Origin: a virus
Lineage: Duplodnaviria; Caudoviricetes
Direction: 5' to 3' (one strand)
Virus record (IMG/VR): IMGVR_UViG_3300002835_000001
Location: 192,001-256,000 of that record
Length of the DNA: 64,000 nucleotides
Below the pieces are notes generated by a model. The model had not been told where the DNA came from and made no database searches. It saw nothing but the letters and a program-made list of their open reading frames with translations. Shown here in pieces: positions 56,306 to 64,000 of the stretch; the first letter of the stretch is position 1; the number at the start of each line of letters is the position of its first letter. Position numbers and translations under genes: made by a program.

Positions 56306-56338
56306 TCCCCGTTGGTTTTTATCAATGGGGATTTTTTT
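56306..56338 (+). terminator. Terminator between convergent operons
   Basis: TCCCCGTTG...CAATGGGGA-TTTTTTT. Confidence 0.7.
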
Positions 56339-57893
56339 ATAACATCATTCTTGACCCAATAAGAAAATTACTTAAGAATGGGGAACCTGGTTTGGTATTA
56401 CCTCCCAATTTATAATTGAAACTAAATCCAAAACGTTTAGTTATTTTATAATCAAATGATGACCCCAATAAAAATCCCATATGTCTATTAACTGTCGTTT
56501 CTCCGTTTGTACTATTCCAAGCTATTGGTGAAAACATAGTAAACACCTGCGGTGATACTGTAAGTTTTTTTGAATAAACATATGGCTTCGTCCAAAATGC
56601 GATTGCTGAAGATGCTACATTATAATCATATCCTTTTCCATTATTAAGGAATAAATTAATGATACCAACATTATAACCAAATGTTCCTTTTTTAGGTGTT
56701 GGCTTAATCCAAGTATAACCTAACAAATTCATATAGTTACCAGCAAGATAAGCAAATGCTGTTCCATATGAATGTATCGCATCTAAATTACCATCTTTTT
56801 TCATTGCCATTTTAGTGTAACCACCCGTTAATACTATTTGACTTAAATCACTATTCACCACCATACCTGAACTATAACTTTCATCACCCGCCATAGATGA
56901 TTTACTTACACCCATTGATATCGATACCAAATATCTATTATCGGGCATTTGAGATGTTGTTAAGTCAGAAGACATTAATAGTGGATTTGTTACCTCATCT
57001 TTCTTCTTCTTTTCTTCCTCTTTCTTCTTCTTTTCTTCTTCTTTCTTTTTCTCCTCCTCTTTTTTGGTTTCTTCTTTCTTTTCTTCCGATTTCTTTTCCT
57101 CGGTTTTAGACTCCTCTTTTTTCTCTTCAGTTTTAGTTTCTGTTTTCTTTTCTTCTGTTTTACTTTCAGTTTTAGTTTCAGTTTTAGTTTCTTCTGTTTT
57201 AGTCTCGGTTTTAGTCTCGGTTTTAGTTTCTGACGATGATGAACCACCACTACTTGAAGATGATGAACCGCTACTTGATGAAGAACTACTTGCTGGTGGA
57301 GGTGATGAAGAACTACTTGCCGGTGGTGGAGTACTTACTGGTGGGGGCGTTGAAGCACTACTTGCGGCAGATGATGCCGCACCACTTGCTGCACCACTTG
57401 CAGATGAACTTGCGGCTGACGATGCTGCAGAACTCGCAGCTGACGATGCTGCTCCACTTGCAGATGAACTTGCGGCTGACGCAGCACTAGCCGCCGCAGC
57501 ATCTGATGCAGCTTTAGCCGCCGCAGCCGCCGCAGCATCTGATGCAGCTTTAGCCGCCGCAGCCGCCGCAGCATCTGCCGCCGCCCTTGCCGCAGCATCA
57601 GCCGCAGCCCTTGCTGCCGCTTGTTGAGCTAAGAAAATTGCATCGTCTTGTGTTGAACATGGTGTTGCAAATATACTATTAACCCATGTTTGAAACGCAC
57701 CACTACTGATATCTGCTAATGTTACAATTTTAGATTTACCTCTAATAACAGCAACGGTTGAGTTTTGTCCGAATGGAATAATAACCACATATACCTTTTG
57801 ATCACACGGATCAATATATGTTTGTGTTATGGTTTGACCAAACGACTCACTACAAAAAAATAATATTAGGAGAGAGATAATATATTTTTTCAT
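56337..57893 (-). CDS. Exported protein: signal peptide, small Cys-pair domain, A/S/P-rich and K/E-rich stalk, C-terminal OM beta-barrel
   Basis: MKKYIISLLILFFCSESFG-Q; amphipathic beta strands; SFDYKITKRF. Confidence 0.7.
   Translation of the reverse strand: MKKYIISLLILFFCSESFGQTITQTYIDPCDQKVYVVIIPFGQNSTVAVIRGKSKIVTLADISSGAFQTWVNSIFATPCSTQDDAIFLAQQAAARAAADAAARAAADAAAAAAAKAASDAAAAAAAKAASDAAAASAASAASSSASGAASSAASSAASSAASSSASGAASGAASSAASSASTPPPVSTPPPASSSSSPPPASSSSSSSGSSSSSSGGSSSSETKTETKTETKTEETKTETKTESKTEEKKTETKTEEKKEESKTEEKKSEEKKEETKKEEEKKKEEEKKKKEEEKKKKDEVTNPLLMSSDLTTSQMPDNRYLVSISMGVSKSSMAGDESYSSGMVVNSDLSQIVLTGGYTKMAMKKDGNLDAIHSYGTAFAYLAGNYMNLLGYTWIKPTPKKGTFGYNVGIINLFLNNGKGYDYNVASSAIAFWTKPYVYSKKLTVSPQVFTMFSPIAWNSTNGETTVNRHMGFLLGSSFDYKITKRFGFSFNYKLGGNTKPGSPFLSNFLIGSRMML
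57161..57630. repeat. Low-complexity GC-rich coding repeats (12-bp ETKT units; 36-bp unit at 57490-57577)
   Basis: gttttagtctcg/gttttagtttca runs; gccgccgcagcatctgatgcagcttta at 57490 and 57526. Confidence 0.85.
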
Positions 57894-58810: not shown

Positions 58811-59533
58811 TTATTTTGTAAAAATTCCCTTTTTAATCATTCTATCAAGAATGTTAGCACAAGCAATATCTAAAGCTTTTTTGGTTGCAGTACTAATTGT
58901 TGATTGGTTGAATTTAATTGGGTCAATCGTTGCGTCAGACAAAAGAGTTAATTCTCTTTTTGTTGTTGCCTCACCTAAACCCGATCCACCAAATACAACA
59001 CCAGTTTCCGCGTTTGTAAATCTAACTTGAAGACCAATACGAGTTACCATATTATCTTGTACACCATTTTTAAGGTTCACAGTTTCATCTTCAGATACCG
59101 AGTAGTCATAACACTCAATGGTTACAAAATACTCAGCCAAATTGATTTTACCACGTCCGTCTAACTTATTCTCAGAAATTCCGGATTGAGATGCTTGAAA
59201 TTGTTTTACCATACGATTCTTAATTTCTGTCTTGTCTTCAGTAAATTTGAATCTGTTTAAGTTTTCAAGATATTCCATAGATATATTTGCAACACCCAAA
59301 CCAACACGTTTTTCTTTTAATTCAGGATACATCTCATACATCTCATCAGAAATGCCCGCCTTTAATATTTGAATTGGAATTTGAGGACCATCGTAGTCCA
59401 TGTAAGCACTTATATCTCTTTTCTTTTCGAAGTCCGCCTTATAGTCTTCCGTTTTAGTTTTACCTATTGTTTGTCCGTTAACGACAACAGCGCTTAGTAA
59501 AAAAACACTTAATAATGTTAATAATTTTTTCAT
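58811..59533 (-). CDS. CsgG-family protein with Sec signal peptide
   Basis: GLGVANI..E.L.N.NRF...E, AEYFVTI...DYS, IGLQVRF-NAETG-V. Confidence 0.72.
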   Translation of the reverse strand: MKKLLTLLSVFLLSAVVVNGQTIGKTKTEDYKADFEKKRDISAYMDYDGPQIPIQILKAGISDEMYEMYPELKEKRVGLGVANISMEYLENLNRFKFTEDKTEIKNRMVKQFQASQSGISENKLDGRGKINLAEYFVTIECYDYSVSEDETVNLKNGVQDNMVTRIGLQVRFTNAETGVVFGGSGLGEATTKRELTLLSDATIDPIKFNQSTISTATKKALDIACANILDRMIKKGIFTK

Positions 59534-60644: not shown

Positions 60645-60956
60645 TTACCACTTAGGAGCCTCTTCCTTAAACTCATCACCTTCTTTTTTCTTAACCGGTT
60701 TTGCGGGTTCTTTAACGGTTTCTTTTTCTTTAATAATAACCGTCTTACCACCACCCGCTGATTGTTGTTGAGTTTGTGAATTTGTAATGTTTATTACTGG
60801 TGCCGCTTGTACTGGTGCTGGTTCTGATTTGTCACCACCACCTAAAAGTGAGGCTGCCCATACACCACCTGCGGTTACTATGGTACCCACAGCACCGATA
60901 AGTGTTTTCTTTAAACCACTCATTGTTCCTTCTTGTTCTTGTGTTTCTTCTGACAT
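60645..60956 (-). CDS. Single-TM protein with low-complexity tail
   Basis: KKTLIGAVGTIVTAGGVWAASLLGG. Confidence 0.65.
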   Translation of the reverse strand: MSEETQEQEGTMSGLKKTLIGAVGTIVTAGGVWAASLLGGGDKSEPAPVQAAPVINITNSQTQQQSAGGGKTVIIKEKETVKEPAKPVKKKEGDEFKEEAPKW

Positions 60957-60986
60957 TGTATTTGTTTTTAGTTTATTTTATTAATA

Positions 60987-61706
60987 TTATGCACCAAACG
61001 CTTTAGTAAATCCTTCAGGACAAGTTTTTGTACATATCAAATCTGCAATAACTGGTGCAAATGCTGCTCCAATTGCAATACCAACTCCAGCTGGTGTTGC
61101 CCATAACTCTGCGGAATCTAAACTTTTACCTAAACAATTTGAAATTATATTTTTTAATAGTGTGTGGTCAATACTATCACTAACGTATGGTATTGCTAAA
61201 AATCCTTCTGTTATAATTTCTGTCATTGCCATTACTACCACCACTTTAGCCGCTTTATCTGCAACATAAAGAACAGGTGTTGCCATAAGTGATAGAGTGG
61301 TTGATGTCGCTGCGCCCGCTGGTTGTTCTGGTGCAAATGCCGCAACACAACCCAAACCAATTGCTGCGGTTACTCCTATATTACAAGCATTTTTATCAGC
61401 CCATTGATATGCATCAATTACCCCTTCTTTTACTTCTTCGTAACCTTCTTTAATTACAGACTCTATTTCATTTCCAATATTAATGAGTACTGGTACTACT
61501 TCTTCTTCCCACTCTCTACCAGTTACATCTTCAATTCTATGATTTGTTTCAGGATGGTCGTGTATGTACCTTATTGCTCTATCGGTAAGTCCCCATGATT
61601 CACATGTTGAACAAGGGCCGTCACCACCAAATCCATACCATCTTACATTGTTATCTCCGCAATCTGAGCGATGATAAACTATTCCGTCTCCGTTTCTGTC
61701 TGCCAT
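60987..61706 (-). CDS. Cys-rich protein with A/G-rich hydrophobic helices, no signal peptide
   Basis: ACNIGVTAAIGLGCVAAF, PAGVGIAIGAAFAPVIADLIC. Confidence 0.65.
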   Translation of the reverse strand: MADRNGDGIVYHRSDCGDNNVRWYGFGGDGPCSTCESWGLTDRAIRYIHDHPETNHRIEDVTGREWEEEVVPVLINIGNEIESVIKEGYEEVKEGVIDAYQWADKNACNIGVTAAIGLGCVAAFAPEQPAGAATSTTLSLMATPVLYVADKAAKVVVVMAMTEIITEGFLAIPYVSDSIDHTLLKNIISNCLGKSLDSAELWATPAGVGIAIGAAFAPVIADLICTKTCPEGFTKAFGA

Positions 61707-61726
61707 AATTTTTATTTTTTAATTTT

Positions 61727-62107
61727 TTAGTTTATTTTATTGAAATCTGTTATTCCTAATTGTTTATTATTAGAATCGAATAACCCTATTCTGTATGCTG
61801 ATGATGGTAATGCGTTAGTGTATACCTTTAAAAGGTTATCACCCGCAATTACGTTCATTGTTTCTTTAGATACCACCCTATTGGAAATGTCAAATATTTT
61901 AATCGTTACCGGACCTGCGGTTTCAATTTTAACGTTCATCGCCACTTCTGAAGTGACAAATGATGATTGTAATTTAATACCAATAGAACTTGTCATTTTC
62001 AGGTCTTCTGATATTGATTGAGGTGTAGGTAAGATATCGTCCTTATAACATCCTGTTAAAATTGTGGATACCAATACTAATAAGAGAATCTTTTTCATTT
62101 TTGTCAT
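61727..62107 (-). CDS. Lipoprotein consisting of a T9SS type-A CTD-like domain
   Basis: LTG-C lipobox, C-Y-K-D-D, VTIKIFDISNRVV...G-N...LPSSAYRI. Confidence 0.65.
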   Translation of the reverse strand: MTKMKKILLLVLVSTILTGCYKDDILPTPQSISEDLKMTSSIGIKLQSSFVTSEVAMNVKIETAGPVTIKIFDISNRVVSKETMNVIAGDNLLKVYTNALPSSAYRIGLFDSNNKQLGITDFNKIN

Positions 62108-62110
62108 TTT

Positions 62111-62452
62111 TTAATTTACTATTATTGTTGTCTTTTTTAATTCTTTTTTATCCACATCCTCAAGTACTAAATATAAATATCCCTTGGGTAATGAATTGGT
62201 ATAAATCTTTTTTTCATTTTTACCTATTTGACCAATAAACTTTTCTCGACTTATTACTTGTCCACTATTTTTATCGATTAAAATTAAATAATGAACAGTA
62301 TTAGAGGTTAAATCAAAAAAAATTGATTGACCATTTGTTACACTACTTTCACCCACATTGAATATTTTTTCAACAGGAGGAGTTGGGGTTGGGATATCCA
62401 TCTTAGTACAACCCCATAGTAAAATCACAAATATGAATAGTATTTTTTTCAT
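62111..62452 (-). CDS. Lipoprotein, paralogue of the downstream gene, T9SS CTD-like
   Basis: LWG-C lipobox; IYTNSLPKGYLYLVL vs VYTNALPSSAYRI. Confidence 0.62.
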   Translation of the reverse strand: MKKILFIFVILLWGCTKMDIPTPTPPVEKIFNVGESSVTNGQSIFFDLTSNTVHYLILIDKNSGQVISREKFIGQIGKNEKKIYTNSLPKGYLYLVLEDVDKKELKKTTIIVN

Positions 62453-62455
62453 ATG

Positions 62456-63349
62456 TTAAAATTGAAAGTTTGTTCCTATCATAAACATTATTGGATTACT
62501 CTTTTTATACCCAACCGATTCGCTCAATTTGTCAAAAGTTGTGTTATATCTAATATTAGTATTCAAAATGAACCTTTTAGTTATTTTCCAATCAAACGAT
62601 GTTCCATAATATAAATCTAAATTAAAATCATCAAAATATGATAAATCCGATGTCGTACCATCTTTAAATACTTTATAGACATCACTCATTGCAAATATTT
62701 GCGGTGATATGTTTACCCTTTTTGTTTTCAATGTATATGTGTACATTACCATACCTCTATAACTTATTTCACTTGATGCCGGCACCATTGGATATATTAA
62801 ATCTTTAAAATCACCATTTTCATCTACCGTATATTTTCCTTCCCATTGACCTTCATATGTTCCCCAAAAAGATTTTGATGCAATTAAACTATATCCAAAT
62901 GTTCCAAACTTTTTAGTTCTGAATACATCTATGAATGATAGTGTAATATCTTTTTGGAAATCAAAATCGGTTGAATAAAATGATTGTAATGTAGTAGTTC
63001 TCTTATCTGTATTTCTAGTGAAACCATATCCTACTCCATAATATTTCCATATAGGGTTTATTGACGCTGCGAATGTGTGTCCCCATTGACCATTCATAGA
63101 TGATTTATTGTAACCCAAATTAAGAGTAGTTGATACTTGTCTACCAATTATACCAACTGAAAGATTTGATGATGATAGAACATCTTTTGAAAAATTAACA
63201 TAGGATTGTAATATACCCACATCGTTCCAATCATCACTTTCCCCAAATAATTCCTTTGGTGATAGTTGTAATGTATCGGGTTTTTGTATTTGTGCGTTTG
63301 TCACAAATGTTGTCGAAATTAGTGACAGAATTATTATTAGTTTTTTCAT
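62456..63349 (-). CDS. Outer-membrane beta-barrel protein
   Basis: Signal peptide ending TNA-Q; amphipathic strands; SFDWKITKRF; terminal IGTNFQF. Confidence 0.72.
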   Translation of the reverse strand: MKKLIIILSLISTTFVTNAQIQKPDTLQLSPKELFGESDDWNDVGILQSYVNFSKDVLSSSNLSVGIIGRQVSTTLNLGYNKSSMNGQWGHTFAASINPIWKYYGVGYGFTRNTDKRTTTLQSFYSTDFDFQKDITLSFIDVFRTKKFGTFGYSLIASKSFWGTYEGQWEGKYTVDENGDFKDLIYPMVPASSEISYRGMVMYTYTLKTKRVNISPQIFAMSDVYKVFKDGTTSDLSYFDDFNLDLYYGTSFDWKITKRFILNTNIRYNTTFDKLSESVGYKKSNPIMFMIGTNFQF

Positions 63350-64000
63350 TAGTTCATTTTTACTTTTAATTGTATTCCATTCTTATTGACGGCATCGGTT
63401 GTTGATATTGAAGTTAAACCCAAAGTACCACTCAATCCTATTAATGGTAAAAATGTTATTTTATATTCTGTTGTTTTATCCAATAATGTTGAACCATCAG
63501 TAATCAATGAACCTAATGTTATTGATGAACCTCTATTAGTTCCAAAATTGGTAGGAGTTCCATTTGTGGTGAATTCTACCTTTTCAAACTTTAATGCTGT
63601 ATTATCGTAGTTTAAATTGAATTGAGTACCAACCAACTCTTGTTGTAAAGGGTCTACCGAAATCGTTACTACTAATTTACCACCAATGTTTTCACCCATT
63701 AGATATGCGTTGATTTGATTGGAAACTGAATTAGTACCCAAACTCATAGTTCTAATAGAATTACTAGCAACACCACTTGTACTTTGTTGTGCTGAATGAG
63801 ATAGGTTTACATCACCAAGCCAAGTAACATTAACATTGTATGTGTTATTAAGTGTACCCGTATTTAAACTAAACGGATATAAACTTCTTGTTGAATTAAA
63901 TTTGGTATTCCAATTAGATTTAGTAATCCCATCATAATCTGATTTACTATAAAGTTTCATCAGAAAAGTTAATAGTGGATTTTGTGTAAGTGGTTGAACT
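63349..64000 (-). CDS. C-terminal part of a large exported-type protein with a cohesin-like domain; open to right window edge
   Basis: Frame stays open upstream of the track ATG (VQPLTQNPLLTFL); VGTQFNLNYDNTALKF...ITF cohesin-like pattern; WLGDVN. Confidence 0.6.
   Translation of the reverse strand, partial: VQPLTQNPLLTFLMKLYSKSDYDGITKSNWNTKFNSTRSLYPFSLNTGTLNNTYNVNVTWLGDVNLSHSAQQSTSGVASNSIRTMSLGTNSVSNQINAYLMGENIGGKLVVTISVDPLQQELVGTQFNLNYDNTALKFEKVEFTTNGTPTNFGTNRGSSITLGSLITDGSTLLDKTTEYKITFLPLIGLSGTLGLTSISTTDAVNKNGIQLKVKMN

Follow-up and report, generated by a model that had tools for sequence, protein, structure and literature searches.

Two adjacent genes of a giant lake phage, probably one of Bacteroidota, here called LpA and LpB, encode small lipoproteins whose only folded part is homologous to the C-terminal domain (CTD) of type IX secretion system (T9SS) cargo. 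They lie in a 64,000-nucleotide stretch of DNA (positions 192,001 to 256,000 of the IMG/VR virus record IMGVR_UViG_3300002835_000001), hereafter the window. The genes belong to a module for exported proteins that exists in two forms. In one form, a CTD is fused in cis to a cohesin-domain protein; in the other, to which the window belongs, the cohesin-ending protein lacks a CTD, and one or two of these lipoproteins are encoded behind it. Because of this arrangement, we favour the explanation that LpA and LpB serve as a stand-in for the CTD, detached from the cohesin protein and anchored by lipid, and as partner subunits of the cohesin-ending protein(s). We hold this explanation tentatively, and put it somewhat short of an even chance.

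LpA and LpB are conserved paralogous lipoproteins

The window is a stretch of a T4-like giant phage: genes for a gp23-type capsid protein, a portal, a large terminase and a prohead protease are present, and the capsid protein is ∼40% identical to the capsid proteins of Flavobacterium phage immuto and of a Microcystis phage. DNA nearly identical to the window was found in freshwater and lake metagenomes of 2016 and 2024, and only 11-16% of the sampled words of window positions 60900-63400 were present in lake metatranscriptome runs, which does not bear on transcription. The two genes are:

62111..62452, minus strand: LpA gene, 113 aa; signal peptide 1-14, lipobox Cys15 (L-L-W-G-C)
61727..62107, minus strand: LpB gene, 126 aa; signal peptide 1-19, lipobox Cys20 (I-L-T-G-C), C-Y-K-D-D

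Gaps of only 3 nt separate LpA from LpB, and the preceding gene from LpA. After Cys15, LpA continues with T-K-M-D and a P-T-P-T-P-P tether, and then with a CTD-like β-sandwich of ∼84 aa that runs to the C-terminus and ends in K-K-T-T-I-I-V-N. In LpB, a disordered tether of ∼21 residues leads to a seven-strand CTD-like β-sandwich (∼42-126), the end of which, G-I-T-D-F-N-K, is highly conserved. The mature proteins, of 98 aa (LpA) and 106 aa (LpB), are made up of tether and domain only. Neither carries a passenger domain, and the signal is a lipobox, not a signal peptidase I (SPI) signal.

An initial annotation of this DNA, made from the sequence alone, had described two tandem paralogous lipoproteins with a shared YTN-LP block. 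This was borne out: LpA and LpB are 30% identical by BLASTP (E 1e-8), their family profiles align in hhalign with a probability of 98.9% (E 4e-17), and the block K-[IV]-Y-T-N-[SA]-L-P is common to both. At 90% identity, metagenomic homologues formed 3,673 clusters for LpB and 727 for LpA, on contigs of up to 343 kb. When 84 loci were compared, the LpA-then-LpB tandem was observed in 82/82 of those with upstream DNA. The median ratio of nonsynonymous to synonymous substitution rates (dN/dS), taken against the window copy, was 0.23 for LpA and 0.075 for LpB. We conclude that LpA and LpB are real paralogous genes under purifying selection.

Database annotation adds little to this picture. No PHROG family, the known exclusion lipoproteins included, matches LpA or LpB, and LpB had no match among 50,697 phage records searched by tblastn. 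No relative came up when 185,579 prokaryote genomes were scanned by pattern, a method that finds close relatives only and does not imply absence from bacteria. Among the records compared, the nearest is a 35-kb fragment (G001), and the LpA and LpB genes are not on it. The NCBIfam matches of LpB are confined to the signal-peptide or N-terminal region. Many LpB homologues are labelled "PBP1b-binding outer membrane lipoprotein LpoB" or "NosL" by JGI; the sequence supports neither name, and both look like carry-over from lipoprotein-signal matches.

The domain of LpA and LpB is homologous to T9SS CTDs

The initial annotation had also read an ∼80-aa type-A CTD pattern in both proteins. Homology and fold uphold this reading, but the curated cut-offs are missed and the PNP motif is lost. 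Por_Secre_tail (PF18962; cut-off 27 bits) matches LpA at 13.9 bits, and 11 of 13 LpA members match it below threshold, the best family member having an E of 4e-4. The best Pfam match of LpB is DUF3244 (PF11589; cut-off 25 bits), at 14.9-15.3 bits; sub-threshold matches to it were obtained with all five LpB members scanned (E 0.005-0.03). The TIGR04183 model, which the annotation had proposed as a check, matched neither LpA nor LpB at E values up to 10. PF18962 is present in 55% and 11% of the members of some related viral clusters.

When compared by hhalign with a profile of eight genuine CTDs, LpA aligned over its whole domain (81 columns) with a probability of 97.4%, and LpB aligned with one of 97.5%. 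A hidden Markov model (HMM) of these eight CTDs matched only LpA and LpB among the 203 open reading frames (ORFs) of the window (E 1e-10 and 6e-10); the eight are a biased CTD sample, since they were selected through family-profile matches. A joint LpA and LpB profile was run against 1.84 billion representative proteins and returned only 144 matches. With no length filter applied, most of these were stand-alone proteins of 104-129 aa and of the same build. The outliers include giant proteins of Bacteroidota type in which Por_Secre_tail/DUF3244 repeats lie internally, and others in which the profile-matched region is the C-terminal Por_Secre_tail domain itself. A sequence search of the PDB with the family profile gave two chance-level matches (E 0.27 and 0.48); the top one, which is non-significant, is 7yl4, a Gram-positive anchor protein.

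The domain is located at the extreme C-terminus: the aligned CTD columns of LpA end 2-3 residues before the stop, and the modelled last strand of mature LpB ends at residue 104 of 106. The G-x-N block is common to LpA/LpB and CTDs, and the L-P-x-x-x-Y block appears to be shared in part. Motif B (aromatic-P-N-P) reads PNP or PVP in genuine CTDs and in the phage cis CTDs described below; it is G-E-S in LpA, and an equivalent is absent from LpB. Motif D (L-P-x-G-x-Y) is L-P-S-S-A-Y in LpB, with the Tyr invariant and the Gly replaced by Ser, and L-P-K-G-Y-L-Y in LpA, where the Tyr is shifted and the Gly is not conserved across the family. A near-C-terminal Lys of CTDs contacts PorV (Lauber et al. 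2024, PMC10994853), and the conserved Lys in the K-T-x-I-I end of LpA aligns with it. In LpB, for which the alignment ends earlier, no Lys is aligned there, and a conserved Lys is found in the terminal F-N-K.

The AlphaFold2 model of mature LpB (predicted local distance difference test (pLDDT) 80.6, core >90) has seven strands and a 21-residue disordered tether. For LpA we infer the same sandwich from its 98.9% profile homology to LpB. The annotation had called for a structure comparison as well, and in an exhaustive VIA search of the LpB model against 48,161 PDB chains the best match was indeed a T9SS CTD, that of mirolase (8qb1_A; Z 11.2, root-mean-square deviation (rmsd) 1.9 Å over 77 residues). 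Also within the top 50 were the PorU CTD (Z 10.3), the NucA CTD bound in the translocon (8glk_D; Z 10.1, 75/75 residues aligned), the PorZ CTD (Z 9.0), the FspA CTD (Z 8.6) and three DUF3244 structures (Z 8.7-9.4). The Foldseek top 50 from the PDB consisted of generic MG2, Fn3 and GH3 C-terminal domains together with the DUF3244 structure 4g5a, and held no CTD. The ESM Atlas comparison is clearer for CTD kinship than the PDB ranking. Among the rows listed, the first four are viral clusters of the LpA/LpB family, and the remaining six, one per distinct Pfam family set, are Bacteroidota clusters in which 91-100% of the members have Por_Secre_tail (template modelling (TM) score 0.72-0.78, rmsd 1.5-2.4 Å).

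From the sub-cut-off scores and the motif, profile and structure results, we conclude that: i) the domain of LpA and LpB is homologous to the T9SS type-A CTD/Por_Secre_tail/DUF3244 superfamily, and ii) the two proteins are not ordinary TIGR04183 members.

Fused and split forms of the module are mutually exclusive

A cis-type module was located through a 240-aa signal-peptide protein encoded downstream of LpB in the window. In phage immuto (NC_055915.1), gp015 (YP_010114427.1, 243 aa) carries a signal peptide, a Cohesin domain (36.7 bits) and a Por_Secre_tail domain (34.6 bits, residues 166-240, above the cut-off of 27). Its gene is directly followed by homologues of three window genes, those for a 103-aa membrane protein, the 240-aa protein and a barrel. 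The cis form is present in 27 viral contigs, namely immuto's own IMG/VR record and 26 others, and its protein comes in two lengths, 243 aa and 633 aa, the CTD of the longer one being at 555-632. This CTD-cohesin fusion, in the same module and without a small lipoprotein, is a new observation.

The small lipoprotein is absent from 27/27 cis loci. Conversely, a CTD match is absent from all ORFs of at least 150 aa in 88/88 lipoprotein-bearing (trans) loci. The homologue of the 103-aa membrane protein, recognizable by its M-S-E-E start, follows the fused CTD in cis loci, and in every module variant its gene comes after the cis CTD or, in trans loci, after the lipoprotein(s). The same position and the lack of co-occurrence show that the lipoprotein holds the exact place of the cis CTD, and that the two forms are mutually exclusive. 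The phage cis CTDs retain the PNP, G-x-Y and Lys motifs; in hhalign they score 91-95% against the lipoproteins and 98.6% against bacterial CTDs.

Distant members of the lipoprotein family (down to a profile E of 5e-5) sit in the same module. There, a ∼160-aa signal-peptide protein and an exported cohesin protein of 545-590 aa, whose cohesin domain passes the Pfam threshold in loci L086 and L088, precede a single lipoprotein. The ∼100-aa M-S-E-E membrane protein, small membrane proteins, a 238-aa signal-peptide protein and a ∼500-aa barrel come after it. In these distant variants the lipoprotein gene starts right at the cohesin stop codon or overlaps with it. The number of lipoproteins equals the number of cohesin-ending proteins: one and one in five distant variants (L086, L088, L090-L092), and two lipoproteins with two cohesin-ending proteins (∼550 and ∼760 aa) in the window clade (e.g., L001:5723-9656).

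LpA co-varies with the cohesin end

Co-variation was analyzed by Mantel tests on pairwise distances in 55 distinct loci, the last 216 aa of the ∼760-aa protein being taken as the cohesin end. LpA was correlated with the cohesin end (r 0.81, p 0.001), and this correlation was retained given LpB, which lies 3 nt from LpA (r 0.78, p 0.001), and given the N-terminal part of the 760-aa protein (r 0.72, p 0.001). The correlation between LpA and LpB was 0.42, and that between LpB and the cohesin end, given LpA, was 0.00. By these results, LpA and the cohesin end form a unit that travels or co-evolves together, and LpB is not part of it. A three-chain co-fold of the cohesin end (216 aa), LpA and LpB, each supplied with an alignment and with the cohesin end as the scored partner, gave 0.88, 0.74 and 0.84 in its runs. 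Controls gave 0.00 and 0.01 when the partner was replaced, and 0.76 when LpB was swapped for an unrelated protein. The prediction was classed as giving no answer, and the co-fold is counted neither for nor against binding.

The lipoprotein signals point to a probable outer-leaflet location

The lipobox Cys is invariant in 60 distinct LpA homologues and conserved in 59/60 LpB homologues, and a lipobox is found in 86 of the 101 small family representatives. The optimal surface-export signal of Bacteroidota is C-X-K-(D/E)2-X (Lauber et al. 2016, PMC5080379). The window LpB (C-Y-K-D-D-I) fits it, so that the lipobox and C-Y-K-D-D motif noticed in the initial annotation are confirmed, and the strict form C-x-K-[DE][DE] is present in 39/59 LpB homologues. 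LpA matches the signal in part, through a C-T-K-x-[DE] pattern with Lys at +3 and one acidic residue (50/60 homologues). The Lys at +3 is almost invariant among LpA/LpB homologues. Family-wide, among 86 representatives, Lys at +3 is found in 43, an acidic residue at +4 in 64, and at least two acidic residues within +2 to +6 in 60. Judged from these residues, LpA and LpB are probably exposed at the outer leaflet via the Lys/acidic route.

Other genes of the module

LpA and LpB lie within a co-oriented block of genes for exported and membrane proteins:

63349..64000, minus strand: C-terminal 216 aa of the ∼760-aa exported lectin/cohesin protein; cohesin-like end, no CTD; the gene runs off the window
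62456..63349, minus strand: 297-aa outer-membrane β-barrel protein, between the cohesin gene and LpA
60987..61706, minus strand: 239-aa Cys-rich hydrophobic ORF, between LpB and the 103-aa membrane protein
60645..60956, minus strand: 103-aa single-pass membrane protein; M-S-E-E start, K-W end; homologue of immuto gp016
58811..59533, minus strand: 240-aa signal-peptide protein; most conserved module gene, 54% identical to immuto gp017
56337..57893, minus strand: 518-aa exported protein; C-terminal part paralogous to the 297-aa barrel; homologue of immuto gp018; last module gene

The 297-aa barrel gene is an insertion/deletion polymorphism: roughly half of the related loci have it (44 ORF matches among L001-L084), and in the others the cohesin gene adjoins LpA. 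Its AlphaFold2 model (pLDDT 66.8) is a generic 14-strand barrel, like CymA (Z 15.3) and OmpG. No PorV- or PorP/SprF-type shuttle was prominent among the matches listed, which neither supports nor excludes such a role. The 239-aa ORF is missing at the same place in L001-L004, and its sole match is a weak one to the PHROG "tail fiber protein/lysozyme" (E 2e-6). The ∼100-aa membrane protein has a single transmembrane helix and a tail of low complexity that is rich in Pro and Gln. Both of its ends are conserved, with M-S-E-E at the start and Trp at the C-terminus; no family match was obtained with the window copy, immuto gp016, or the copies of L086 and L088.

Outside the module, a faint GH19-like gene with a peptidoglycan-binding start adjoins it in one distant variant (L088:11307-11921), and a Glucosaminidase gene does so in another (L092:952-1458). 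From these endolysin-type genes, it appears that the module tends to neighbour lysis genes. In a third variant, on a 9.5-kb contig, a TonB-dependent receptor gene (Plug and TonB_dep_Rec barrel; L091:1-2053) lies ∼2.3 kb upstream of the module; this could be a phage-borne receptor gene, or could reflect a bacterial or prophage setting.

Proposed role of LpA and LpB, and alternatives

In the explanation that we favour, LpA and LpB would be lipoproteins of the host outer membrane that are made by the phage, with a folded part descended or recruited from the CTD family. Their setting is a conserved phage module that also encodes lectin/cohesin proteins for export, small membrane proteins and outer-membrane barrels; within it they would bind the cohesin-ending protein(s), holding or sorting them at the outer membrane. 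LpA may be the specific partner of the ∼760-aa lectin-cohesin protein, docking it to the outer membrane, and LpB a more conserved second anchor with a full surface-export motif; the T9SS may still be used. The initial annotation had offered, as one of two possibilities, adaptors that recruit the phage cassette to the T9SS. That proposal gains support from the CTD that cis-type phages carry on the cohesin protein at the same position, and from the co-variation of LpA with the cohesin end.

Several points weigh against the stand-in explanation. The lipoproteins match the phage cis CTDs (91-95%) no better than they match bacterial CTDs (97%), and so give no sign of a recent origin by fission from a phage cis CTD. 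LpB co-varies with neither cohesin protein, and the co-variation of LpA could stem from a recombination block instead of co-evolution. How the CTD-less 760-aa protein crosses the outer membrane is left unexplained. With regard to the domain, MG2 and Fn3 domains reach ∼Z 10, within ∼1 Z of the best CTD, as expected of a common β-sandwich, so that the PDB ranking alone is not decisive. A further outlier of the 144 profile matches, P0311, is a 2,485-aa Gram-positive MucBP/KxYKxGKxW adhesin in which seven repeats were matched (E 6e-11), a warning that the x-I-x-D-x-x-G-x-x-V hairpin motif is widespread. With regard to location, the LpA motif has only one acidic residue, and the surface-export motif was assayed only in Capnocytophaga, Bacteroides and Flavobacterium constructs (PMC5080379). 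The hairpin motif itself is shared by CTD-like and MucBP-like domains.

The homology, the fold and the cis/trans evidence also fit a trans-acting T9SS signal, in which the CTD-like domain of the lipoprotein would be recognized by host PorV/SprA and would ferry the bound CTD-less cohesin/lectin protein through the T9SS, the complex then staying lipid-anchored on the surface. The extreme C-terminal position is the one that a CTD requires. Recognition by the translocon depends mainly on the fold and on the one Lys that contacts PorV (PMC10994853), with which the conserved Lys of LpA aligns. We nevertheless consider such a signal unlikely: PNP is lost in both lipoproteins and kept in the phage cis CTDs, G-x-Y is altered, the scores lie under the PF18962 cut-off and TIGR04183 gives no match, LpB has no Lys at the aligned position, the conserved surface-lipoprotein export motif suggests a T9SS-independent route, and we found no precedent in the literature for a CTD acting in trans. 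In one version, which seems to us quite unlikely, the phage would have moved the CTD from its cargo to a lipid anchor, and a single small lipoprotein would both take lectin/cohesin proteins that lack a CTD across the host translocon and keep them attached to the cell surface. If true, this would bypass the host sortase/anionic lipopolysaccharide (A-LPS) attachment step; it would be the first T9SS signal to act in trans, and a modular system by which a phage displays proteins on the cell surface. The other possibility raised in the initial annotation was a decoy that jams the T9SS: a lipid-tethered, uncleavable CTD mimic would occupy PorV or the translocon and block the export of the host adhesins and gliding proteins that phages use as receptors, resulting in superinfection exclusion. 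According to two reports (10.1101/2020.10.02.323337, PMC9804748), phage resistance of Flavobacterium maps to gliding and T9SS genes, so that a T9SS block would remove receptors. The dN/dS of 0.075 is what is expected if LpB binds a conserved host target. The domain does have the fold and homology of a CTD, but beyond the fold nothing points to a decoy. The canonical CTD motifs, among them the PNP that the cis CTDs keep, are eroded, and the genes always lie inside a module, with LpA co-varying with it, whose sister form needs a working T9SS for its cohesin protein. We therefore regard a decoy as improbable.

Two further readings take the lipoproteins out of the T9SS context. The sandwich could bind a host outer-membrane receptor and mask it, in the manner of T5 Llp or Cor and unrelated to the T9SS or the cohesins. 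LpA and LpB are small phage-encoded outer-membrane lipoproteins, probably surface-facing, and LpB is strongly conserved without co-varying with the cohesin proteins, all of which would suit a mask. Against it stand the lack of similarity to any PHROG family, exclusion lipoproteins included, the location of the genes away from tail or receptor-binding genes, and the cis/trans replacement pattern, which a mask leaves unexplained; the reading is a poor candidate. The lipoprotein could also be the outer-membrane half of a two-component spanin acting in lysis, with the ∼100-aa membrane protein encoded next as the inner-membrane half. The lipoprotein gene is followed by one for a membrane protein that has an N-terminal anchor and a conserved C-terminal end, the stop of the former often overlapping the start of the latter. 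This is compatible with a spanin, as are the holin-like small membrane proteins that follow and the endolysin-like genes beside the module (the faint GH19 match of L088 and the Glucosaminidase of L092). However, in its mature form the protein is a Cys-free folded sandwich where a spanin would be a short Pro-rich peptide, exposure at the surface and not in the periplasm is what the acidic motif predicts, and the lipoprotein comes first in the gene order. The reading is weakened because cis-type modules keep the same membrane protein and have no lipoprotein at all, and we judge a spanin to be very improbable.

Widespread giant freshwater phages, with thousands of metagenomic variants, carry the CTD fold as a free-standing lipoprotein. 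The natural pair of fused and split forms is a testable handle on roles of this fold beyond translocon targeting. It bears on how Bacteroidota phages redecorate the surface of the infected cell with lectin/cohesin assemblies, and on whether surface-lipoprotein export and type IX secretion can replace each other. If the lipoproteins are only generic tethers, the finding is a new viral branch of the Por_Secre_tail/DUF3244 superfamily.

Comparison with known systems

To our knowledge, every T9SS sorting domain described so far is a tag attached in cis to its cargo. The type-A CTDs of known structure (mirolase 8qb1, NucA 8glk, PorZ 5m11) resemble the domain of LpA and LpB in being seven-strand sandwiches of ∼80 aa at the extreme C-terminus. 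They differ in that they follow a passenger and an SPI signal, whereas LpA and LpB have no passenger, carry a signal peptidase II (SPII) signal and have lost PNP. The exclusion lipoproteins of the phage T5 Llp type are likewise small phage-encoded outer-membrane lipoproteins made during infection; LpA and LpB differ from them in their gene neighbourhood and in having no PHROG match.

The initial annotation had called a CTD without a passenger atypical. This is a fair description but not an absolute one, as Fjoh_0547, the DUF3244 proteins and a 104-aa bacterial cluster of the ESM Atlas indicate. DUF3244 (PF11589) proteins of Bacteroides (BT_1867, 4g5a; BT_3571, 3sd2; BVU_0276, 3d33) are small single CTD-like sandwiches, and a genome search confirmed the family in B. 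thetaiotaomicron; they are bacterial and not viral, and LpB reaches ∼15 bits against their cut-off of 25. Two very small proteins, Fjoh_0547 of F. johnsoniae (112 aa) and PorA of P. gingivalis, consist of little besides a signal peptide and a CTD, and PorA binds PorV through its CTD (PMC7712824). Both are host-encoded and not described as lipoproteins, and are likened here to LpA and LpB by description only; PorA differs further by its extra Ig-like domain and its signalling role. Phage-encoded T9SS cargo is also on record, in the "Cryophage", a Bacteroidota phage using CTD-type domains (Bellas et al. 2020, PMC7468147). There, the CTDs are ordinary ones in cis, on enzymes and on a PA14 protein, in contrast to the bare lipid-anchored domains of the window.

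The nearest counterpart is gp015 of immuto with its 26 IMG/VR relatives, which belongs to the same module and has its CTD between the cohesin domain and the M-S-E-E protein. There the CTD is fused, canonical and not lipidated, whereas here it is replaced by one or two separate genes, the products of which have a lipobox and a motif of the surface-export type. For the fused form a cultured pair exists, phage immuto (vB_FspM_immuto) on Flavobacterium sp. LMO8.

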